53,030 nt of DNA from a virus. The notes beneath the pieces are model-generated. The model was not told where the DNA came from and did not search any database. It worked only from the letters and a program-made list of their open reading frames with translations. The stretch covers positions 1 through 53,030 of IMG/VR virus record IMGVR_UViG_3300012971_000007; one strand, 5' to 3'. Of this stretch, positions 751-44,382 are shown piece by piece. Position 1 is the stretch's first letter. Every line of letters starts with the position of its first letter. Made by a program: the position numbers and the translations under genes.

Positions 751-2379
751 ATGTCGTTCCTGCTCAAGCACTACTCGTCCGAGCTGCTGAAGCGGGAGGC
801 TGACCCTGAACGCGAGATCCGAAAGGTCTTTCGGGCCGAGGAATTCGCAGCCGGCCACGTCGAACAGCTTGCGTTTCTGAGCGACCGGTCGCCCTGGCAG
901 CACGTCATGTGCGCCAGGCAGTCGGGAAAGAGCTGGGGGTGCGACGGGAAGCTGTTCGAGAACGCACAGAACTACCCACGCTCCGTCGGGCTGCTTCTCG
1001 GCATCAAGGGCACGGGTGTCCGAGTAAACAACTGGATCCCGATCTGGCAGCAGGGCGTGTGTGAGCGGTATTCGCTATCCGCCGACTGCCACAACGAATC
1101 CCAGATGCTGACGACGTTCCCGAACGAGGCGCGCGTCATGTTCGCCGGCACGGACGACTTGACCAACGTCAAGAAGTACCTCGGCAACCGCCTGCACAAC
1201 TGCGTCGTCATCATCGACGAGTGCCAGGACCAGCCCGAGCACGTTCTCAAGTACATCCTGACCGTACTACTTCCGCCGATGTGCACGCCGACGACCCAGA
1301 TCATCATCGCGGGCGTCATTCCGGAGATGCCGGTCGGTTACTTCCTGGACCTGGCCGAGTACGACGCGGAATCGAAGACAGGCGGGAAGGGACCTGGCTA
1401 CGCCCACCATTCCTGGGCCCGCGCCGCCAACGTCCATACGCCAGAGGCGATGAAGCAGCTCCAGGACTACCTGAAGCGCCACAACATCTCGATCGAAGAC
1501 CTGACGATCCAGCGCGACTGGTTCAAGCGGCGCGTGTGGTCGCGAACCGCAGGCGCGTACAAGTACCGTCCCGAACTGAATGCCTACGCCCCGCCTGTCC
1601 CGGAATGGCTGGCCGAGGTGTACGCCCAATTCCAGGCCGAGGGGACCGGCAAGCACAAGCTCATGTTCGCGCATCCGATGCTGGAGGCCGATGACGGCGC
1701 CCGGTATGGCCTGATGGCAGCGGAGCCAGACCCTGGGATGCGCTACTTCGCATTCGCCCTCGACCCGGGGGCCAGCAGCGACAGGGCATCGGTGCAGGGC
1801 TGGGCCTGGGGCGAGCTATCGAAGAACGTCAAACACATCCTGGACTGGACGACGCCGCGGGGAGCGGGTCTGGCCACCAGCCAGATGTTCTCGGTCATGG
1901 GCTGGGCGCAGAAGATCTTCACGGGCTACGCCGGCCCCCGCGGCGGCATCGTCGACTGGCGGTATGACGCCGGCTCAAGTCAGAACACGATCGATAACCT
2001 CCAGAACGACTACGGCATCCCCGTGGTGCTGGCGGCAAAAAAGTCAGATCTGAAGGGCCAGGTAGACCGCAACAACGACCTGCTCGAACAGGGCCGGGCG
2101 CTGGTCATGATGGGATCGGCCCTCGAACAGGACTACCAGCGCGCCAGGTGGGATCCGGAGGCGCGCGCCCGCAAGCAGTTCCGGTGGGCAACCAACTGGC
2201 ACCCTGACCCGTCCGAGGCGGCCCGGTACGCGCTCCAAAAGTACCTGGACGTGCACGTCCCGCCGCCGCCGCCGCCGGCCAATGACCTGGAGCGGCACCG
2301 CGCAGAGGTGAAGGCCGCGCTAGACGAGGCGCGCAGGGCCGAGTCCCAGGCCGAAGAAGACGCCGCCGACTACGGCTAA
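751..2379 (+). CDS. terL: Terminase large subunit
   Basis: 542 aa with Walker A-like CARQSGKS, Walker B VVIIDECQD and an RNaseH-type nuclease motif FAFALDPGASSD. GGAG lies 9 nt before the ATG. Confidence 0.9.
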   Translation: MSFLLKHYSSELLKREADPEREIRKVFRAEEFAAGHVEQLAFLSDRSPWQHVMCARQSGKSWGCDGKLFENAQNYPRSVGLLLGIKGTGVRVNNWIPIWQQGVCERYSLSADCHNESQMLTTFPNEARVMFAGTDDLTNVKKYLGNRLHNCVVIIDECQDQPEHVLKYILTVLLPPMCTPTTQIIIAGVIPEMPVGYFLDLAEYDAESKTGGKGPGYAHHSWARAANVHTPEAMKQLQDYLKRHNISIEDLTIQRDWFKRRVWSRTAGAYKYRPELNAYAPPVPEWLAEVYAQFQAEGTGKHKLMFAHPMLEADDGARYGLMAAEPDPGMRYFAFALDPGASSDRASVQGWAWGELSKNVKHILDWTTPRGAGLATSQMFSVMGWAQKIFTGYAGPRGGIVDWRYDAGSSQNTIDNLQNDYGIPVVLAAKKSDLKGQVDRNNDLLEQGRALVMMGSALEQDYQRARWDPEARARKQFRWATNWHPDPSEAARYALQKYLDVHVPPPPPPANDLERHRAEVKAALDEARRAESQAEEDAADYG

Positions 2380-6324: not shown

Positions 6325-6353
6325 GTGCAGGGTACGCCTCTCGCATTGGCGTG
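6325..6353 (+). promoter_or_regulatory. Late intergenic cassette copy 2
   Basis: GTGCAGGGTA-cgcctctc-GCATTGGCGTG. The terminal GTG (6351) is the scaffold gene start. Confidence 0.6.
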
Positions 6354-7487
6354 GGAGACACCCAAGGAGACGCGCCAGCAGCCGCTACCACCGGCAGCGG
6401 CGAAGGGACACCCGATAGCGGCACGCCGCCGGCAGGCGACGCGCCCGACACGCAGGGAGGCGCGGCGCCAGGCGGGACTCATAATCCCGCAGACACGGGT
6501 TCGACTCCCGCCCCTGCTACCGAAGGCGGCGACAAGCCGCCGGAGACCAGCACCAAGGGCAAGGCGGGCAAGGCGAAGCCGGCCGAGCCGTCGGCCAGAT
6601 CTGGCCCAGATCTGACCCGCCGACTGGCGGACATGTCGAGAGACAACCGGGAACACCGGAAGGCGCTCGCGGATACGACCAGGGAGCTTGAATCCGCTCA
6701 TCAGCGGTTGGCGGACTTCGACGGTCTGATCAAACGCTCCCAGGCGGGCGACGGCGCGGCGATCGAGGAGATCTACAACCGGTTCGGCCTGTCGTTCGAG
6801 AAGATCGTCGACTACCACGCCGGCAAGCCGGATCCGACGCCCGAGCAGGCCCGCGATGCGGAAGTCGCCGCCCTGCGGGCCGAGCTGAAGGCTGACAAGG
6901 AAGCCCGCCAGCAGGAGCAGCAGCAAGCCCAGCAGGCGATGGCACAACAGCGCGAAGCCGCCGCCCGCGCGGAGTATGTAGGTATGTGCGGCCAACACAT
7001 CAAGGCCGCGGGGGACCAGGCCGAAATCTGCGGGCGTCTTGGCGACGAAGCCGCGGAGGCGGTCTTCGGCAAGGTGATCAAGGCGTGGGGTGATGCCGGC
7101 CGTCCCGAGCTGATGCCGGGCGAGCTGGAAGAGGCGATCGACAAGGCGATCGAGGTGCAGGAGCTGGAGTACGAGAAGCGCGGACAGCTTCTCGTGAAAA
7201 AGCTCAACGGCACGAATGGCACCAACGGTCACGCCAACGGCGCCGCGAAAACTTCTGATCTTCCAGCCGGCTTGACCGGCGGGAAATTGAGCGACACGGA
7301 CGAAACCATCCTGAACGGGCTCATAGACAAGTCGGCCCCCGGGGAGAAATCGCAACGCGCGAAGCCCCGGTCAATCAGCAGCCAGATGGGGGGCTCGGCG
7401 CCGCCGAAGACCGCCCCACGCGGAGGCATGGACGCCCGCGAGGCCCTACGGGCCACCCTCGCGGACTTCAACCTCACCCCGCGCTGA
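6351..7487 (+). CDS. Scaffolding protein (putative)
   Basis: 378 aa with a low-complexity N-terminus and charged, helical repeats of the QQEQQQAQQAMAQQREAAARAEY type. It lies immediately upstream of the capsid gene. Confidence 0.65.
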   Translation: MGDTQGDAPAAATTGSGEGTPDSGTPPAGDAPDTQGGAAPGGTHNPADTGSTPAPATEGGDKPPETSTKGKAGKAKPAEPSARSGPDLTRRLADMSRDNREHRKALADTTRELESAHQRLADFDGLIKRSQAGDGAAIEEIYNRFGLSFEKIVDYHAGKPDPTPEQARDAEVAALRAELKADKEARQQEQQQAQQAMAQQREAAARAEYVGMCGQHIKAAGDQAEICGRLGDEAAEAVFGKVIKAWGDAGRPELMPGELEEAIDKAIEVQELEYEKRGQLLVKKLNGTNGTNGHANGAAKTSDLPAGLTGGKLSDTDETILNGLIDKSAPGEKSQRAKPRSISSQMGGSAPPKTAPRGGMDAREALRATLADFNLTPR

Positions 7488-10305: not shown

Positions 10306-13300
10306 TGGCGCCCGGCCTGCCCCGCCGGACGGTCCCGATCCTGCTGCGGGGCCTGGACCAAAAAGAGCCGAAGCAGACGGGCATCATGGGCGCCGTCGAG
10401 GTGCTCCAAAACATGGTGCTGATGAAGTCGGCCGAGGGCGGCTACGAGTTCGTGCCGCGCCCCGGCACCACCAATTTGTCAAAGACGGCAGATGTGGGTA
10501 GCATTACGTCCGGGATGCGGCTCGGGACGCTTGGCGCTGGCCTGGTATTGCTGACGGGGGCGTCCTGTTACCGGAAGGCCACCGACGAATGGCACCAGGT
10601 GTCGGCGACCGCGCCGACGGTCGGCGTAGACCAGCGAGCTATCACCCTCGGCTCAGCAACCGTCATCAGCTCGGACAGCGTCTATCTGAACGGGTACACG
10701 GTCTCGGCCTACATCACGGCTGACAATCTCAACGGGCAACAAGAGATCCGCTATTCGATCGTGGACGTCAACGGCGTGGCGGTGGTTGCCAACGCGCTGC
10801 TCGGTCAGACCCTGACCACACAGAGCTATCGTCGGGTGAAGATTCAAACTGCGGGTACCCGCTTCGTCATCAGCTACTTCTCGACGCTGTCCGTGATCAT
10901 CACGGCGCTGATCGGCGACACGGCCACGCCTACCGTTGTGCCTACCAACGTTACGGTGGCGAATAGCGCGATGGAGATCTACGACGCCCAGACGGTCGGC
11001 AGCAGCGGCAAGGTGGCATACGTCTGGCGGGACAGCGGTACCAATCAGCTAAAGCAGGTGCTGCTGACGCTGTCGTCCGGAACCCTGAGCGGCGTAACGA
11101 CCTATGCCGGGCTCACCAGCCTCGACGAGATCGGCTACCTGACCAACACGTACGCCGCGAACACGATCTATCTCGCGCACGTCGATATCACTAACGGCAT
11201 GCGCGTCTCGACGTTCGACGGGACATCGTTGGCGCTCGGATCTACGACTGTCTTTGATGCTGCCGTCACCAGCGTCTATAACATCGGCGGCTACCGGTCA
11301 GGAACGACGACCACGGTCCATTTCACGTTGGCAGGGGCCAACCCGTGGGATCGCGTGATCCGTGTGAACACGGGCGGTGCATCATCGGATGTCATTCGCT
11401 CTCTGACGCTCGCCTCGCGGGTGGTCTCATTCGGCGGCAACCTGTACGCACTGGCGCGCTGGGCAGGGCCGATTGGAACCGCCAGCAACTTCCTGCTCGA
11501 TCTCACCAACAACCTGACAGTCGGGCAGGCGACGCCCCTACAGGCGATCGATGCGCCCCTGGCTGGCTTTGCCGATCAGATGCCGAACCTGGCACCGGCC
11601 GCAGCGTCCAACGTCTTGCTGACGGCGGCCCAGAAGATCGTCGCGGTCCAATCGGGCGGCGGCTCGGCAGTCACCGACGTCGGCGCCGTCACGGTTTCAT
11701 TCACGATGCAGGATCCAACAGTCGGGAAATCCGTCGAGCTGAATGGGCTACTGCACATCCCAGGCTCTCAGCCGTACGTCTACGATGGCTCGGCGCTTGT
11801 CGAGCACGGATTTGTACAGACGCCGACATTCTTCGGAATGGCACTAGCAGGTGGCGGCGGCCTGACAGCCGGAGCGACGTACAGCTATCGGATCACGTAC
11901 GAATGGACCGACGCCGCCGGGAACGTTTGGCGGTCGGATCGGAGCGGCATTCAGACGACAACGCTCAGCGCGGCTCAAACGCAGGTTACGCTGACGCTGC
12001 CGACCCTGCGGGTTACAAGAAAGACCAACGTCTCGATTGGTGTGTACCGAACGCTCGCCAATGGCGACGGGTCGGTGTTCTTCAAGGTGTCGAGCGCGAC
12101 GCAGCCGATCCTGAACAAAACCACCATCGACGCTGTGACATTCGTCGATCAGGTATCTGACCAGGCAGCGGCCTCGGGCGAGCCGCTCTATTCTCCGAAC
12201 GACAACGCCGGATCGGTCCTGCCGAACATCGCGCCGCCGCCGTGCCGGGTGATGGCGGTCCATCGCGGACGGCTGCTGATCGGCGCCGTCGCAGGCGATG
12301 TTGATGCGGTCTGGTTCTCGAAGGACGTCTCGCCTGGTTTCGGTGTCGAATTCTCCGATGCACTGGTCTCGCGGATCACTAGCGTCGAGCCGATCACGGC
12401 TGTCGGGTCGATGGACTCCTATGCTGTGGCATGCACGGCGACGCAGAGCTGGGGCAGCATCAACGAATACCCAGACGACACTGGCGCTGGCGGCGTTCTC
12501 GTTTTTCAGCAGCAAAGCGACACGAACGGCTGCGCCACGATCGGGCTGCTCGGCAAGAATGATCTCGGTTTCATGACATGGGGCGGGAAGGCTACGAGTG
12601 GCGCGGCGACGACGCCGGCCAAGGGATTCTGGCGCAGCTCGCGCGGGCTATCTTGGGATTATGTTGGGAGCGGTGTCGAAGACGATGTGCTGCAATTCCA
12701 GTTCGATCCGGTAGCTGTCGTATCGGTGAAGGGCCAGAACCAGATGCGCTTCGTCGGCAATGGCAACATCCTCGGCCGGATGGTCTTCGTCTACGAAACC
12801 CTGTACGGGACGTGGGCGAATTGGTACTACAGCCAGGCCCCGGCTGCATTCGTCGATGCCGTGCTCTGGAATGGCACCATGGCGTATCTCTGCGCCGATG
12901 GAACGGTGCTGACGGAAGACGTGACGACCTATGACGACGTCAGCGTGCGCGTCCCGCATGTCTGCACGCTGTCCGGTCTGAACCTCTACGGCGTGGCCGG
13001 CTTCGGGCGTCTCTACATCACGCAGCTTACCGGCCGATGCGTCGGCGGCGGGAACGGGTTCATCCTGCGGGCCGACCAGTCATTCGACGGTGTGGCGATC
13101 GCGACCAAGTCAATGGTCTATGGCGGTTCAGAGACCGAGCTTGCTTTCGAAGTCGATCCGGGAACCATGGGGAAGTCATCCAGGTACGACCTGTCGATCT
13201 CCGACACGGCCAACGGTGCCAATTCGGCCTGGACCCTGACCGCGGTTACAGCCCTGATCGGCATGAAATCCGGCCTTTCCAAGCTGCCGCCGGCTCGCCG

Positions 13301-25825: not shown

Positions 25826-26520
25826 CGCAGATTTGCATCGTAAATCGGTCGGGACTTGGAAAACCCGACTGCGCCTTCATCGCCAACGCCTGCAACCAGC
25901 AGATGACGGAAGCGGCGCAGGCGTGGGGCGTGGAACCGACGCCCGTGGTCTTCTACGACACGGCCGACGGGCTGCCGCCGATCGAGTGCCGGATCATGGT
26001 GATCGTGGATTCGCTCGACGAACCGGGCGCCCTCGGATACCACACCGACGAGCTGGGCGACATCTTCGCGCGCGTCTTGAACCAGGGACCGGTCGACACC
26101 TGCACGACCGTGTCCCACGAATGCCTGGAGATGCTGGTGGACCCGGAATGTACGGCCTGGCGACCGGCGGGGATGTCGGGGCGGGAAGTGGCGCTGGAGG
26201 TGTGTGATCCCGTCCAGGCCGACAGCTACCCGATCGGGGCGACGATCGCGGGCGAGACGCGCCAGATGATGGTGTCGAACTACGTCCTGCCGCGCTGGTT
26301 CGACCCGGCTGGAGTAGGCGCTTTCGACGCCATGCTGAAGCTGGATGCCCCACTGTCGATGTCGGCGGGCGGCTACGAGATCGTCCGCGACTCGGACGGG
26401 AACCGGTTCGACATCTTCGCCCGGACCAGGTTGGGCGACAACGACGCCAAGGTGAACGTGGCGATGAAGATCGCCCGCAAGGGTTCGCGCACCCTGCGCC
26501 GGCTGCGAGGTGGCAAGTGA
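25822..26520 (+). CDS. Hypothetical protein (232 aa)
   Basis: ATGA overlap. Conserved-looking GALGYHTD and SHECLEMLVDPE are present, but no family is recognised. Confidence 0.65.
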   Translation: MTQICIVNRSGLGKPDCAFIANACNQQMTEAAQAWGVEPTPVVFYDTADGLPPIECRIMVIVDSLDEPGALGYHTDELGDIFARVLNQGPVDTCTTVSHECLEMLVDPECTAWRPAGMSGREVALEVCDPVQADSYPIGATIAGETRQMMVSNYVLPRWFDPAGVGAFDAMLKLDAPLSMSAGGYEIVRDSDGNRFDIFARTRLGDNDAKVNVAMKIARKGSRTLRRLRGGK

Positions 26521-27074
26521 GTGACTTCACCGACCGGCTGATGTTCGAGGCCCGGAAGATGCTCGGGGTGCGTGAAGAGGGCGGCGCGAACCGGGGCACG
26601 ATGATCGACATCTGGAACCGGGAAGCCGGGGCCCCGGTCGGCTCGCCCTGGTGCGCCTCCTTTGTCCACGCCATGCACAAGGCGGCATCGGACTACCTCG
26701 GGATCTTCAATCCCTGCCCCCGGACTGCTTCGACGCACGCCCTATGGACAATGGCAGATCCGGCTAGCAAGTCATCGCTCCCTGCGCCTGGTGACGTGTT
26801 CGTGGTCGACCATGGCCTGGACGCCGAAGGCAATCGGATCGGCCACTGCGGGATTGTCATCGCCGTGACGCCGGATGGTCAGACGATCGTGTCGATCGAA
26901 GGCAACACGAACGCCGCCGGCAGCCGAGAAGGGGATAGCGTCGCCCAGCACACCTGGCGCCCCCGTGACGGGAAGCGCGGCACGCTGCTGGGATACATCG
27001 CCTTCGATCCTGGCCAGGCGCCCGCCGATCCGGAAGCGAAAGACGATGCCCAAGCCCACGGGGAAACAACCTGA
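26517..27074 (+). CDS. Endolysin, CHAP / NlpC-P60-type peptidoglycan hydrolase
   Basis: Contains GGANRGTMIDIWN...GSPWCASFV...GHCGIVIAV...IEGNTN, with the catalytic Cys and His in their usual contexts. Confidence 0.75.
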   Translation: MSDFTDRLMFEARKMLGVREEGGANRGTMIDIWNREAGAPVGSPWCASFVHAMHKAASDYLGIFNPCPRTASTHALWTMADPASKSSLPAPGDVFVVDHGLDAEGNRIGHCGIVIAVTPDGQTIVSIEGNTNAAGSREGDSVAQHTWRPRDGKRGTLLGYIAFDPGQAPADPEAKDDAQAHGETT

Positions 27075-27291
27075 CGATCCATTTGGGCCGGAAGAAGCGA
27101 CCGTCGTAGAGCTACGCCCGGACGACTACGACACCCCGCCATCCGTCCCCCGCTGCACCGAATGCGGCGCGATCGTTTTCGTGGACGACTACGAGACGAT
27201 AGAGTTTCCCAACGACCGCTGCTTGCGCTCGCGCACCGAAACCTGGCATTGGTGCTGCAAGCTGCGCAAGTCGGTAACGTTCGTCCGGTAG
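27046..27291 (+). CDS. Small Cys-containing protein (81 aa), uncertain
   Basis: ATG 27046 is in frame with track ORF 26875-27291. It has CTECG...WHWCC and overlaps the endolysin end by 29 nt. Confidence 0.4.
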   Translation: MPKPTGKQPDDPFGPEEATVVELRPDDYDTPPSVPRCTECGAIVFVDDYETIEFPNDRCLRSRTETWHWCCKLRKSVTFVR

Positions 27292-27292
27292 G

Positions 27293-27376
27293 AGGAGGGT
27301 GGAGGAAATCGAATCCCGGTCTGTCGACCCCATGCCGGGTTTCGGGTCCGGCTGCGCCACCAGGCGCGGCACCCTC
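27293..27376 (-). tRNA. Non-canonical class-II tRNA-like gene (8-bp acceptor, D-stem with tetraloop, long variable arm; anticodon position CGA)
   Basis: Manual fold of the minus strand. Acceptor: GGAGGGUG/CACCCUCC. D arm: GCGCC-UGGU-GGCGC. Anticodon arm: GCCGG(A)-CCCGAAA-(C)CCGGC. Variable arm: GGUC-GACA-GACC. T arm: GGGA-UUCGAUU-UCCU. Confidence 0.4.
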
Positions 27377-27416
27377 CAGGTGCCTAGCGCCGGGATGACG
27401 ACGAAAAGATGTGCCC

Positions 27417-27444
27417 GAACAAAAGGCGCGCTGCGGTTTTCGCG
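27417..27444 (-). terminator. Weak intrinsic-terminator-like hairpin plus T-tract; competes with the permuted-tRNA trailer helix
   Basis: The minus strand reads GCGCG-AAAACCGCAG-CGCGC-C-TTTTGTT. Confidence 0.25.
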
Positions 27445-27518
27445 CTCTGCCACTGAGCTACGGCCGCCCCAACGGGGCGTCCGGCCGGGATCGAACCGGC
27501 GACCTCGACCATGCAAGG
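27439..27518 (-). ncRNA. Circularly permuted tRNA-like unit: 3' half (27518-27475), 8-nt linker, 5' half (27466-27439)
   Basis: The 3' piece is CC-CUUGCAU-GGUCG-AGGUC-GCCGG-UUCGAUC-CCGGC-CGGACGC-C. The 5' piece is GCGGCCG-UA-GCUC-AGUGGCA-GAGC-G-CGA. The acceptor strands pair 6/7. Confidence 0.4.
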
Positions 27519-27555
27519 GTAACGCAACACAAGCGGCTCAGGCACGGACAGCAGT

Positions 27556-27816
27556 CTAATCGTCGATCCGGTGCGCGGCCAGGAATTCGTCGATCTCGAT
27601 CTTGCAGGTGCCAGGTTCCAGCCAGCGAGTGGCCGCCCGTAGCAACTTCAGGGCATGCCGGAAGCTGGCCCGTTCCTTATCGACCGTGAGCGGCATGCCG
27701 CATTCTTCACAGTAGACGTCGCCCGCCTTCGGCGGGCAGCCGTTGACGCACTCACCGGTCGGCAGCACAAGACTGCCGCACAGATCGCACTGGAGAAGAT
27801 CGCCACGGATGATCAT
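27556..27816 (-). CDS. Zinc-ribbon-like small protein (86 aa)
   Basis: Begins MIIRGDLLQCDLCGS...CVNGC...YCEECG. The start at 27816 was chosen because 27820-27886 folds as a tRNA-like element (track start 27858). Confidence 0.55.
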   Translation of the reverse strand: MIIRGDLLQCDLCGSLVLPTGECVNGCPPKAGDVYCEECGMPLTVDKERASFRHALKLLRAATRWLEPGTCKIEIDEFLAAHRIDD

Positions 27817-27819
27817 CGA

Positions 27820-27886
27820 GCCCGCCCCCGGAGTCGAACCGAGCGCCTCAGGACACAAACCCCAGGCGGCAGCCAGCGCGGCGGGC
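27820..27886 (-). tRNA. 67-nt tRNA-like gene with a reduced D arm (anticodon position UGU, Thr-type)
   Basis: Perfect 7-bp acceptor GCCCGCC/GGCGGGC and canonical T arm CUCGG-UUCGACU-CCGGG. The anticodon loop is UUUGUGU. Only 13 nt are available for the D region. Confidence 0.4.
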
Positions 27887-28138
27887 CTACTTCTTCGCCG
27901 GCCTGTCGACGTGCTTACGGGAGTCGTGCTTCGTCGATCCGCACTTGCTGCAATGGCGCCGGCCCTGCTTCCTGGGCGCTGGTGTCGCGTCGGTCAGTTG
28001 CGCAACGTTCGCCGCGAGACGATCGAGCATTTCCCGCGCGCTCGTCTTTGCCTGCTCCCGCAGCACTGCCTTGACCGCATCGGCAGCGGCCCGGAAGATC
28101 CTGTCGATCGCCTCGTCGATCTTCATGCTGGCAGTCAT
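27887..28138 (-). CDS. Hypothetical protein (83 aa) with a basic CxxC tail
   Basis: Track ORF with an ATGA overlap to the upstream mini-ORF. Confidence 0.6.
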   Translation of the reverse strand: MTASMKIDEAIDRIFRAAADAVKAVLREQAKTSAREMLDRLAANVAQLTDATPAPRKQGRRHCSKCGSTKHDSRKHVDRPAKK

Positions 28139-28239
28139 GGCAGGAACCCGAACAGCCAGTCCAGCACCGGCCGGACAACGCCGCTGATCAGCATCCCGGC
28201 AGCCACCAGGGCGACAGTCAGTGAAACCCGCGTGATCAT
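28135..28239 (-). CDS. 34-aa single-TM peptide
   Basis: Sequence MITRVSLTVALVAAGMLISGVVRPVLDWLFGFLP. Its stop overlaps the next ATG (ATGA). Confidence 0.4.
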   Translation of the reverse strand: MITRVSLTVALVAAGMLISGVVRPVLDWLFGFLP

Positions 28240-28273
28240 CCTGCGCGCATTAATGCGCACTGTCTGCCCCGCG

Positions 28274-28492
28274 TCAACCATGGACCGGGCACCTCAGCAG
28301 GGCGACCAGGACACCAGCGCGGGCCAGTGAGTCGATGTGCAGGCAGGCACAGAGCTGGCGCGGCAGCGGGGCGTTGTCGTTCGCGCGGATGCCAGGAGAC
28401 AGGCGCATGACGCGCGGGCGCCGGTCGGTCGGCTCCGTCACGACCACGCCAGCGAAGTCGTCGATTACGATCTTGAATGCAGGTTGCGTCAT
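28274..28492 (-). CDS. Hypothetical protein (72 aa)
   Basis: ATG 28492 is preceded by gaaggtgaaacg. In frame with track ORF 28274-28561. Confidence 0.5.
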   Translation of the reverse strand: MTQPAFKIVIDDFAGVVVTEPTDRRPRVMRLSPGIRANDNAPLPRQLCACLHIDSLARAGVLVALLRCPVHG

Positions 28493-28695
28493 CGTTTCAC
28501 CTTCTTCGGGTCCGTGAACCCGTCTCTCTCCAGCTTCTCCAGGGCCGCCAGCAGCATCCATTTCCCCATGCTGAGCGGGAACGGCTTGACTGCGTTGGCG
28601 GCTGTCTCGATCAGCTTCTTCTGGTCGGCGTTCGGCTTGACCTTGATCTCCAGGAATTCGGCCACGGGTTCAGGATGGGGCAAGACATTACCCAT
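28489..28695 (-). CDS. Small possible DNA-binding protein (68 aa)
   Basis: Begins MGNVLPHPEPVAEFLEIKVK...MGKWMLLAALEKLERD. The ribbon-helix-helix resemblance is weak. Confidence 0.5.
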   Translation of the reverse strand: MGNVLPHPEPVAEFLEIKVKPNADQKKLIETAANAVKPFPLSMGKWMLLAALEKLERDGFTDPKKVKR

Positions 28696-43137: not shown

Positions 43138-44382
43138 TTGCCCCTTCCGGGGTCTTCGGACTTCCTAGTAGTTTCCCATGGGTCCGTGCCCCCCAGAGTC
43201 CGAAGGATCGCAGGTGCGCTTGTGCTGACGTCGCTGGCCAGCGTCACGGCTGCGTACGAATCCGCTGCGGCGCAGATCGTACAACTTCGCCAGTCGCTAG
43301 ATGAGTCGTACGACGAGAACAAAGAGCTGCGGCGAACGGTTGCCAGTCAGGGCCGGCTGCTGTCGAGGCTCGCGTCGGAGACGTCACCGACGGCGCCAAG
43401 CATCAACTGTGTCTACTGGCTGTATTCAGAAGCCCGCCGGCACGAGCGATCCTGGGATCACGTCTGGCAGCGGGTGACGCCGCTGCTGCGACGATACGGC
43501 GAGCTGCCCGCGCCTGAGTTGAACCCAGTGCGCTGGGAACAACACCGGGCGATCCGCCGGCTGGAACCAGATCGGCGCGGGGCGATGCCGCACGAGTACA
43601 CGCTGAACATCGAGCTGACCAGGGCCAAGGAGATGCTCAACTGGGCGGTTGCGAACGGGATGATCCTGTTCAATCCCCTGGCGCCGGCCAGGAACGTCAG
43701 GACGGTATGCGAACGAGAGACTCGGCTACGCTCGGATGACGTCGACCGGCTGCTGCGAGCCTGCGCGGCACTGAAGGACGAGCGGCGCGGGAAGGACGAC
43801 GGGAGACGGGCGGCGCTGCTGCGCGCCTTCGTGCTCTGCTGCTTCGACAGCATGCTCCGGTTCAATGAGGCCCGACACCTGCGGCGGGACCTGATTGGGA
43901 AGGACGGGATCTACACGCTGTCCTGGACCACGACGAAGAACCGGAAGGCGCGGACGGTGGTGCTGACGCCCAGGACGCTGGCGGCGATCGAAGCCGTTCA
44001 ACCGACCCCCGGGACAAATTACGTATTCGCCAGTAACGACACGGGAATCCTGATCGGGGAGACGTTCTTCCGCCGGTTCTTCCGTCGGGCCTGTAAGGCG
44101 TCCGGGATCGACGCGCGCTGTGCGCCAGGCGATCGGCGGATCGTCGTCCATCACCTGCGCCATGCCGGGGCGTCCGAAGCCGACGAAGCCGGAGCCCGGC
44201 CTGGCGCCATCAAAGACGCCCTCGGCCATTCCCGCCTGGCCACGACCGAGAAGTACCTACATCGGGAACGGACGGAGAGCGCCAGACATGTTGCCGAGCG
44301 GATGGTGGCCGCTGCCGGTCGCCGGCCACCCCAGCGAGCAAAACGGAAGGCTGGGCACAAGAAACTGGCGAAAGATTCTTGA
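43138..44382 (+). CDS. int: Tyrosine recombinase / integrase (start uncertain)
   Basis: Contains MLRFNEARHL (Arg), VVHHLRHAG (HxxR) and LGHSRLATTEKYLH (His...Tyr). The track start is a TTG. Confidence 0.85.
   Translation: MPLPGSSDFLVVSHGSVPPRVRRIAGALVLTSLASVTAAYESAAAQIVQLRQSLDESYDENKELRRTVASQGRLLSRLASETSPTAPSINCVYWLYSEARRHERSWDHVWQRVTPLLRRYGELPAPELNPVRWEQHRAIRRLEPDRRGAMPHEYTLNIELTRAKEMLNWAVANGMILFNPLAPARNVRTVCERETRLRSDDVDRLLRACAALKDERRGKDDGRRAALLRAFVLCCFDSMLRFNEARHLRRDLIGKDGIYTLSWTTTKNRKARTVVLTPRTLAAIEAVQPTPGTNYVFASNDTGILIGETFFRRFFRRACKASGIDARCAPGDRRIVVHHLRHAGASEADEAGARPGAIKDALGHSRLATTEKYLHRERTESARHVAERMVAAAGRRPPQRAKRKAGHKKLAKDS

Follow-up and report, generated by a model that had tools for sequence, protein, structure and literature searches.

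A probable YrlA-type Y RNA in the tRNA-like gene cluster of a temperate phage

Y RNAs of the YrlA type resemble circularly permuted tRNAs (Chen et al. 2014, RNA 20:1715, PMC4201824; Wang et al. 2018, bioRxiv 10.1101/312249, structure 6CU1). In their native order a T arm is followed by a closed acceptor hairpin and a D arm (Chen et al. 2014; Wang et al. 2018), and the tRNA-shaped end is recognised by tRNA enzymes (Chen et al. 2014). Chen et al. labelled the hairpin upstream of the T arm 'V', for variable arm, described the motif YUAY and defined the Ro-binding motif as GNCGAAN0-1G. As their operational criterion, the RNA gene had to share the strand of Ro60 and lie no more than 4 kb from it, and their search was limited to TROVE-encoding genomes; Y RNAs of phages that lack Ro60 therefore fall outside that design. 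Complexes of Ro60, a Y RNA and PNPase have been reported from Deinococcus, Salmonella and Thermus phage phiLo (Chen et al. 2014; PMC12135203). Binding by Ro60/Rsr and the presence of pseudouridine 55 and dihydrouridine also count among the criteria for the YrlA type. In bacteria (Chen et al. 2014) and for Yrl1 and Yrl2 of phiLo, it has been described that the Y RNA tethers Ro60 to PNPase, and a capture of the host PNPase has been proposed (NAR 2025, PMC12135203). Genuinely permuted tRNA genes, as summarised by Wang et al. 2018 with reference to Soma 2007, Maruyama 2010 and Chan 2011, occur in Cyanidioschyzon merolae, in other algae and in one archaeon.

Here we describe a locus in viral DNA of 53,030 nucleotides (the window, meaning the whole stretch that was analysed) that a first-pass annotation had taken for a phage-borne permuted tRNA gene processed into tRNA-Ala. 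We propose instead, with a probability of roughly 0.85, that positions 27545-27411 of the minus strand encode a YrlA-type Y RNA of about 135 nt, which lies in a cluster of tRNA-like genes ending a leftward operon of a temperate phage. The RNA class, its phage members and its resemblance to permuted tRNAs are already known. What is unusual in the window is the absence of a gene for Ro60, the usual protein partner, together with an altered Ro-binding motif. Since the permuted-tRNA resemblance of YrlA has been published, the first-pass annotation rediscovered a known property of this RNA class, and what looked like the first permuted tRNA gene of a phage would become a member of a described family.

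Organisation of the locus

Both pieces of the tRNA-like unit are present on the minus strand with the sequences originally quoted, although every coordinate had been given one base too low. The tRNA 3' half (27519-27476), reading CC-CUUGCAU-GGUCG/AGGUC/GCCGG-UUCGAUC-CCGGC/CGGACGC-C, lies 5' of its matching 5' half (27467-27440), reading GCGGCCG-UA-GCUC-AGUGGCA-GAGC-G-CGA, and the linker CCGUUGGG (27475-27468) separates them. The acceptor strands pair at 6/7 positions as claimed, the mismatch being G.A at 4:69. Joined in silico in rotated order, the pieces gave the expected 73-nt cloverleaf, called tRNA-Ala(UGC) by ARAGORN; in native order ARAGORN was blank at the locus, as had been predicted. 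The 8-nt linker was placed correctly apart from the one-base shift, but it is not single-stranded, as CCC and GGG are paired and the acceptor hairpin is closed. The complementarity of the flanks, initially interpreted as a processing helix, is substantial: the duplex reaches -29.6 kcal/mol with z = -4.3 against mononucleotide shuffles. The predicted parts of the RNA and its two neighbours, all in the same orientation, are as follows.

27818-27886, minus strand: upstream neighbour, a tRNA-like gene called tRNA-Thr UGU by ARAGORN
27411-27545, minus strand: whole predicted YrlA-type Y RNA, about 135 nt, ends set by the outer stem
27539-27545, minus strand: outer stem, 5' strand GUGCCUG, pairing with CGGGCAC at 27411-27417 in the constrained fold
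27531-27538, minus strand: segment AGCCGCUU of the internal loop, occupying the place of the Ro60-binding motif GNCGAAN0-1G
27523-27530, minus strand: inner stem, 5' strand GUGUUGCG, pairing with CGCAGCGC at 27428-27435
27519-27522, minus strand: conserved YUAY motif, here UUAC; most family members have UUAC or AUAC
27506-27520, minus strand: anticodon-arm-like hairpin (the 'V' stem-loop of Chen et al.), ACC, loop CUUGCAU, GGUCG
27501-27505, minus strand: variable loop AGGUC, 5 nt, read from the sequence; NGGUC is conserved in the family
27484-27500, minus strand: T arm GCCGG-UUCGAUC-CCGGC, from the Rfam YrlA alignment, the R1 alignment and family covariation
27461-27483, minus strand: closed acceptor hairpin CGGACGCCCC-GUU-GGGGCGGCCG, 10 bp with one G.A mismatch, read from the sequence
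27444-27460, minus strand: U8-A9 and D arm GCUC-AGUGGCA-GAGC, from the Rfam YrlA alignment, invariant in the family
27440-27443, minus strand: G26 and CGA, contributed by the 3' tail to the split anticodon-like stem (C27-G43, G28-C42)
27428-27435, minus strand: inner stem, 3' strand CGCAGCGC, from the constrained fold and the comparison with the sister contig L125
27411-27427, minus strand: 3' internal loop GCCUUUUGUU with UUGUUC of the Y-RNA type, then the outer-stem 3' strand CGGGCAC
27294-27377, minus strand: downstream neighbour, a tRNA-Sec-like element (40.6 bits with the Rfam tRNA-Sec model, whose gathering score is 47)

The flank stem is of the Y-RNA type, with 8 bp and 7-10 bp on either side of an asymmetric internal loop; its outer part can be extended to 10 bp (27536-27545) and is identical in sequence in L125. 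The hairpin at 27506-27520 corresponds to the 'anticodon loop' of the first-pass annotation, and its local stem pairs covary in the family. Where the window has UUGUUC, Ro60-linked units carry CUUGUUC, CUGUUCC or UUGAUCUC, and the Rfam YrlA consensus is cUuGuc. An intrinsic terminator formed with the U-run after the 3' flank was considered and rejected, as this U-run belongs to the internal loop of the Y RNA, where it forms the conserved strand of the UUGUUC type. An ordinary divergent tRNA at 27476-27551 was likewise rejected, with only 16.8 bits and E = 3.3 for the Rfam tRNA model. Unconstrained folding of 27415-27550 as a single sequence gave a minimum free energy no better than shuffles in this GC-rich DNA (z = +0.43), and support for the structure therefore comes from relatives rather than from thermodynamics.

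The unit stands at the end of a leftward operon with DUF932, DUF3846 and small ORFs. The tRNA-Thr-like gene is 80% conserved in L125 and borders immediately on the Y RNA there; in the window a 272-nt insert (27546-27817) without significant structure (z = -0.8) lies between the two. The tRNA-Sec-like element is conserved in L125 as well. No sigma-70-like promoter was found for the Y RNA, and because the unit is located between the tRNA-Thr-like and tRNA-Sec-like elements, it is probably excised from a multi-RNA precursor. The G+C content of the window (63-67%) is compatible with beta- or gamma-proteobacterial hosts, where the nearest Ro60-linked relatives occur. Megablast of 26500-28500 against GenBank phages and tblastn with the terminase revealed no close relative, and the CHAP lysin had no relative in IMG/VR. 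The capsid protein was found only in ENA metagenome assemblies.

A tRNA-like 3' portion placed before the 5' portion is also found in the two-piece permuted tmRNA genes of alpha-proteobacteria, some beta-proteobacteria and cyanobacteria. Unlike these, the window unit has no tag reading frame, G3:U70 or CCA; ARAGORN reported no tmRNA in the window, and Rfam scans of the window gave no tmRNA match either.

Homology to Ro60-linked YrlA RNAs

At gathering thresholds, Rfam returned no match in the whole 53-kb window. A permissive Rfam scan of 26800-28300 found a single structured match on the element, namely YrlA (RF02553) with 27.6 bits and E = 0.0022, well below the YrlA gathering score of 69 bits. 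This alignment spans model positions 23-87, i.e. only the core of T arm, closed acceptor and D arm. By sensitive blastn against GenBank phages, the rotated unit was detected in eight Xanthomonas/Xylella phages and about 180 Mycobacterium phages. In the two phages examined, Usme and Issimir, a TROVE/Ro60 gene follows the unit at a distance of 0-200 nt; Usme encodes a 439-aa TROVE plus Ro60-vWA protein, and the downstream gene of Issimir is annotated 'Ro-like RNA binding protein'. These Ro60-adjacent units of Xanthomonas and Mycobacterium phages are the phage Y RNAs of Chen et al. 2014.

A pattern scan of IMG/VR yielded more than 120 loci, in which ordinary tandem tRNAs were mixed with units containing a closed acceptor hairpin. 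Using a Ro60 profile built from 41 orthologues found among the scanned loci, we detected Ro60 within the fetched stretch in 39/62 closed-acceptor loci, and wherever found, the Ro60 ORF was on the same strand and no more than 1.5 kb from the unit. From 37 aligned Ro60-adjacent viral units, with the window excluded, we built a covariance model of 147 positions (R1). R1 matched the window at 27545-27403 over model positions 1-147/147, including the non-tRNA flanks, with 64.6 bits and E~1e-18. The only other match in the 53 kb was a weak partial one at a tRNA-like site (6473-6511, 17.9 bits); genuine tRNAs are also matched by R1 in part, through anticodon arm, variable loop and T arm. With a model that had not seen the window, the rotated arrangement is thus far beyond chance.

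Scanning for the window signature GGUCGAGGUC...GAGCGCGAAA recovered three viral contigs and four contigs of bacterial MAGs (Uliginosibacterium, Burkholderiaceae and two Lysobacterales). Ro60 adjoins the unit in all four of the latter and in the viral contig L126. Two window-like copies scored above the Rfam gathering score of 69 bits (L127 with 73.1, L128 with 71.2) and others below it (L129 with 47.5, L130 with 45.3, the Ro60-adjacent L126 with 36.9 bits). As the copies of L126, L129 and L130 are Ro60-adjacent, the Rfam cutoff misses members of the accepted type.

The contig L125, which is syntenic with the window from 25.0 to 38.3 kb (13 kb, 70-85% nucleotide identity), has the same outer stem and tRNA core and keeps all helices with compensatory changes. 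Its inner stem GUGGUUCGG/CCGAACUGC shows C-G<->G-C and G-C<->C-G exchanges when the alignment is read with a 1-nt shift. Across the family, 6/7 acceptor pairs exhibit double changes. RNAalifold on a MAFFT alignment recovered only the T, acceptor and D helices; MAFFT misaligns the flank stems, and these were tested sequence by sequence.

Taken by its parts, the window unit agrees with YrlA (Chen et al. 2014; Wang et al. 2018) in several respects. The T stem-loop lies 5' of the D stem-loop, and both have loop sequences of the tRNA type in the Rfam and R1 alignments. Between them is a closed acceptor-like stem that leaves no CCA end free. Paired with each other, the two ends of the RNA form a long stem interrupted by an internal loop, as indicated by the flank duplex, the constrained fold and L125. 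Further shared features are the module order, the 'V' stem-loop 5' of T, YUAY, the UUGUUC-type 3' motif, the location among tRNA-like genes and the full-length match to the model of Ro60-linked phage units. It differs from YrlA in its Rfam score (27.6 against 69), in a local hairpin stem reduced to 3 bp, in the motif GCCGCUUG and in the absence of a Ro60 gene from the 53 kb.

Ro60 was searched for in the window with two phage Ro60 proteins (tblastn) and by Pfam on 20 ORFs, both negative; searched against every six-frame ORF of at least 80 aa, the HMM of 41 Ro60 orthologues reached no better E than 0.39. Hence no Ro60/TROVE gene was found within about 4 kb on the same strand, where it is expected next to a YrlA gene. 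At the Ro-binding position, relatives carry GCCGAAG or GCCGAAUG. The segment reads GAGCCGCUUGUG in the window compared with the canonical GAGCCGAAGUG (GCCGAAG) in L125 and GAGCCGAAUGUG in L087. Since the exact motif GNCGAAN0-1G is present in only 4/37 Ro60-adjacent viral units, it does not strictly define the phage members.

The window is probably not alone in lacking Ro60. Besides the window and L125, units scoring 75-107 bits were found on contigs whose fetched sequence of a few kb each contains no Ro60 (L087, L070, L089, L068, L102, L095 and L061), and some of these contigs carry the unit in several copies; the absence was searched over 53 kb for the window and over a few kb for the other contigs, which makes this claim provisional. 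As a candidate for an alternative partner gene near the Ro60-less units, we considered their only shared family, in which 2/5 ORFs gave weak HNH-endonuclease matches below the cutoff of Pfam; the family is absent from the window, and we rejected it.

The element could also be a decaying Y RNA gene, i.e. a YrlA homologue that lost its function together with its Ro60 partner and binding motif. The missing Ro60 gene in the window, the exchange of AAG for CUU relative to L125, a 5-nt deletion that shortens the hairpin region in the R1 alignment and the lowest R1 score among the relatives tested (64.6 vs 70-107 bits) would all agree with this. However, the helices are all intact with compensatory changes against L125 and the tRNA core is fully conserved. 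Moreover, the rarity of the exact motif among Ro60-linked units means that deviation from it is no disqualifier, and the high-scoring units on other Ro60-less viral contigs, some of them multi-copy, argue in the same direction. Decay would be a special case of the Y RNA reading, and we consider it unlikely, yet still in play.

A split anticodon-like arm

The first-pass annotation had assembled the anticodon stem from CGA of the 5' piece and CC of the 3' piece. This split stem turned out to be a family-wide feature in which nt 27-28 covary with nt 42-43. Among the 37 Ro60-linked units, 97% of cells show pairing between nt 42-43 and the two nucleotides that follow N26, and 21 double changes were counted. 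In alignment A1, pair 65-142 is AU in 19 units, GC in 8, CG in 5, UA in 3 and GU in 1, and pair 66-141 is GC in 31, UA in 3 and CG in 2. If the hairpin were instead closed entirely by local pairs, 9 of about 35 cells would be unpaired at each position, with almost no double changes. The anticodon-like stem is therefore split: the 3' tail supplies nt 27-28 and the 5' segment nt 29-31, and the long stem emerges between 28 and 29. Rotated at this point, 67/69 closed-acceptor units are called tRNA by ARAGORN. The hairpin loop has 7 nt in the family; U33 occurs in 51/69 units, and 65/69 have a purine at 37. About 19 triplet identities are seen among 67 relatives. Rotated-order cloverleaf, split anticodon stem and flank helix, all three recognised in the original annotation, are thus properties of the family, as judged by covariation and by the rotated ARAGORN calls. 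The covariation in Ro60-linked units shows that the hairpin preceding the T arm and the two nucleotides after the D arm jointly make up a complete mimic of an anticodon arm; the same hairpin is the variable arm of Chen et al. 2014, and according to Wang et al. 2018 an anticodon loop is missing from Salmonella YrlA.

The comparison with L125 bears on whether this arm decodes. The hairpin loop is CUUGCAU in the window and CUUCUAA in L125, so that the triplet changes from UGC to UCU, and the acceptor of L125 is unrelated in sequence, again closed, with a 9-bp stem and a GNRA-type GGAA loop. As both triplet and acceptor sequence differ, the loop is under no decoding constraint. A decoding tRNA would be expected to keep its anticodon and identity elements between such relatives, and to judge from the two sequences the RNA of window and L125 keeps only its shape.

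These data also bear on the claim that the locus is a true circularly permuted tRNA gene. Its transcript would be cleaved at the flank helix and its ends joined, and RNase P together with a 3' nuclease would open the acceptor loop, so that the phage obtains a functional tRNA-Ala(UGC). The 3' half does lie upstream and the rotated sequence does form a canonical cloverleaf, called tRNA-Ala(UGC) by ARAGORN, and the split anticodon stem is backed by covariation. According to Chen et al. 2014, RNase P cleaves the YrlA of Mycobacterium smegmatis, whose acceptor stem has 7 bp, and CCA is added to it in vivo; further processing of some YrlA RNAs is allowed for by Wang et al. 2018. No bacterial counterpart of the splicing endonuclease that acts on bulge-helix-bulge structures is known, however (Wang et al. 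2018), and the flanks bear Y-RNA sequence motifs in place of a bulge-helix-bulge. Nor does the linker look ready for processing, being fully paired within a continuous 10-bp hairpin with a 3-nt loop (9 bp and GGAA in L125), and the free exchange of the triplet between sister phages and throughout the family speaks against decoding. The identity rules of tRNA-Ala call for G3:U70 and A73. The rotated 'tRNA-Ala' has G3-C70 and C73 and encodes no CCA.

The algal and archaeal permuted tRNAs, as far as they are described in the summary by Wang et al. 2018, likewise have the 3' half first, an acceptor closed by a loop and ends that pair beside the anticodon region. Unlike the window unit, they are described there as being cut at a bulge-helix-bulge by the splicing endonuclease, circularised and matured into decoding tRNAs, and as keeping their anticodon and identity elements, which window and L125 do not. 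Together with the homology to YrlA seen by Rfam, blastn, R1 and the comparison of relatives, this makes a tRNA gene at this locus highly improbable, and the claim of a phage permuted tRNA processed into tRNA-Ala is not upheld.

Least credible of all is debris with no function of its own, be it the captured junction between two tandem tRNA genes of a host or what is left of an attP/att site with a tRNA 3' half, as the unit is conserved in the syntenic L125 with compensatory changes in three helices. Phage att sites often bear tRNA 3' halves, and a tyrosine integrase is encoded in the window (43138-44382), but it lies 16 kb from the element rather than next to it, and both tRNA halves are present along with the Y-RNA flanks. 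At a junction, a historical origin of YrlA from dimeric tRNA transcripts, the model of Sim and Wolin in the form in which Wang et al. 2018 cite it, would lend this view some plausibility. Yet the flanks pair (z = -4.3), unlike those of true tandem-tRNA junctions (z about +0.5), the full-length R1 match extends into the non-tRNA flanks, and the one signature scan of the genome collection returned only Ro60-adjacent YrlA loci and zero tandem tRNA-Ala genes.

Possible function and implications

The 5' and 3' ends of the RNA pair into a two-part stem made of an outer stem, an internal loop at the Ro60-binding position and an inner stem. This stem carries the rotated tRNA-like module, which begins with the anticodon-arm-like hairpin and the 5-nt variable loop and continues through the T arm and the closed acceptor to the D arm; the 2-3 nt after the D arm pair back onto the 3' strand of the hairpin. 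For a YrlA-type Y RNA of this anatomy, the family suggests a mode of action. By analogy with other members, the long stem could be the docking site for the ring protein Ro60 (Rsr). Because the phage window contains no Ro60 gene, the partner would be a host Ro60. The tRNA-shaped end could engage a tRNA-binding effector or tether an exonuclease such as PNPase, and the RNA itself would be neither aminoacylated nor decoding.

Phage-encoded Y RNAs with a stem-bulge-stem architecture are common to the window, cluster C1-like mycobacteriophages, the Xanthomonas phage Usme group and phiLo, and all of those compared except phiLo have a tRNA-like domain. In the C1-like, Usme-group and phiLo phages, unlike in the window phage and L125, a Ro60 gene of the phage itself directly follows the Y RNA on the same strand. 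The RNAs of window and L125, and probably those of L087, L070, L089, L068, L102, L095 and L061, can be regarded as orphan YrlA RNAs in this sense. Rather tentatively, and against the odds in our own estimate, we suggest that such orphans exist as a group, that most phage YrlAs mimic the full anticodon arm and that the orphans act with no phage Ro60. The mimic would consist of a 5-bp stem split at 28/29 and a 7-nt loop, often CUNNUAA, in which position 33 is U, position 37 is a purine and the middle triplet changes freely between close relatives. An orphan RNA could plug into the host Ro60-PNPase machinery. A second possibility is that it would decoy or sense host enzymes recognising the anticodon loops of tRNAs, for instance anticodon nucleases, modification enzymes or the Rtc repair system.

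The locus also provides a recipe by which such RNAs can be told from permuted tRNA genes elsewhere, namely a T arm, a closed hairpin and a D arm inside a long stem with YUAY and UUGUUC. Y RNAs in phages that lack Ro60 go beyond the published YrlA surveys compared here, of which that of Chen et al. 2014 searched TROVE genomes. The anticodon-arm mimic seen by covariation in the 37 Ro60-linked units is a second modest addition to them. If it is true that phage Y RNAs engage tRNA-recognising proteins of the host by means of an anticodon-like arm, this would bear on counter-defence, although at present this is speculation.

Non-canonical tRNA-like RNAs flanking the predicted Y RNA

The predicted YrlA-type Y RNA of the window is accompanied by two further tRNA-like elements, both of which have counterparts in the syntenic viral sister contig L125.

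tRNA-like elements on either side of the Y RNA
27818-27886, minus strand: tRNA-Thr(UGU)-like gene, called by ARAGORN, upstream of the Y RNA (L125 homologue at 11151-11220)
27294-27377, minus strand: tRNA-Sec-like element, detected with the Rfam tRNA-Sec model, shortly downstream of the Y RNA (L125, 11404-11488)

The downstream element scored 40.6 bits with the tRNA-Sec model, for which the gathering score is 47, and ARAGORN did not report it. Its acceptor stem is 8 bp long and its D stem 5 bp with a 4-nt loop; the 'anticodon' loop of 9 nt (ACCCGAAAC) lacks UCA. The element is kept in L125, where the 9-nt loop reads CUUCGAAUA. On the upstream side, a local scan with the Rfam tRNA model gave nothing at 27818-27886 even at E<=10, and the L125 homologue, which is 80% identical and immediately adjoins the Y RNA, was not called by ARAGORN. 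The cluster is therefore made up of three non-canonical tRNA-like RNAs.

In the window, a segment of 272 nt (27546-27817) that is missing from L125 separates the Y RNA from the tRNA-Thr-like gene. This segment carries an ORF of 100 aa (27556-27858) for which Pfam returned no match, and its RNA structure was not significant (z = -0.8).

The tRNA-Met call and the phage background

ARAGORN also called a tRNA elsewhere in the window, and a putative large terminase was assigned by position and size.

Further features of the window
6451-6521, plus strand: tRNA-Met call
751-2379, plus strand: putative large terminase, ORF of 542 aa

The tRNA-Met call falls within an ORF of 378 aa (6351-7487) with coding-type GC3, for which the ENA contig L123 likewise has a gene call (824-1960). 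No tRNA match from Rfam attained the gathering score, and R1, our covariance model from 37 Ro60-adjacent phage units with the window excluded, scored 17.9 bits over the anticodon arm and T arm. Probably, then, ARAGORN has made a false-positive call or picked up a stretch of a gene that resembles a tRNA.

Overall, the layout is that of a temperate tailed phage with portal, tail genes, CHAP lysin, AAA_24, PAPS reductase and tyrosine integrase. The putative terminase had no match in Pfam, nor by tblastn at E<=1e-5 among 50,697 GenBank phage records, and megablast with the RNA region gave no match. The exact capsid protein was found only in the ENA metagenome assemblies ERZ27264556 and ERZ27264337.

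YrlA-like units and neighboring ORFs in other loci

Tandem arrays of two to five diverged copies are frequent for YrlA-like units, beside Ro60 in bacterial MAGs and also on viral contigs whose fetched sequence lacks Ro60.

YrlA-like tandem arrays
L127, 2631-3151
L129, 610-1214
L130, 2836-3381
L061, 389-833
L102, several

Most phage YrlA-like units (alignment A1 of the Ro60-adjacent units; loci L002-L130) have CUNNUAA (U36-A37-A38) as hairpin loop, the loop context of t6A37-carrying tRNAs for ANN codons. An odd unit in L047 (5158-5279), with an identical copy in L082, resembles neither tandem tRNAs nor typical YrlA. In it, a D-arm-like segment comes almost immediately before a T arm, after which stand a closed acceptor hairpin and another D arm; the unit has no anticodon arm, and there is no Ro60 in the locus.

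A single ORF family recurs close to Ro60-less YrlA-like units on tRNA-rich viral contigs; around the unit in the window, no member was found to a distance of about 4 kb.

Recurrent ORF family near Ro60-less units
L087, 5005-5595
L070, 3720-4169
L089, 2722-3207
L068, 1009-2488

Two of the family's five ORFs matched HNH endonucleases weakly, at 17.5 and 18.5 bits, which is below the Pfam cutoff of 21.4, and the others had no Pfam match. These ORFs may be homing endonucleases rather than functional partners.
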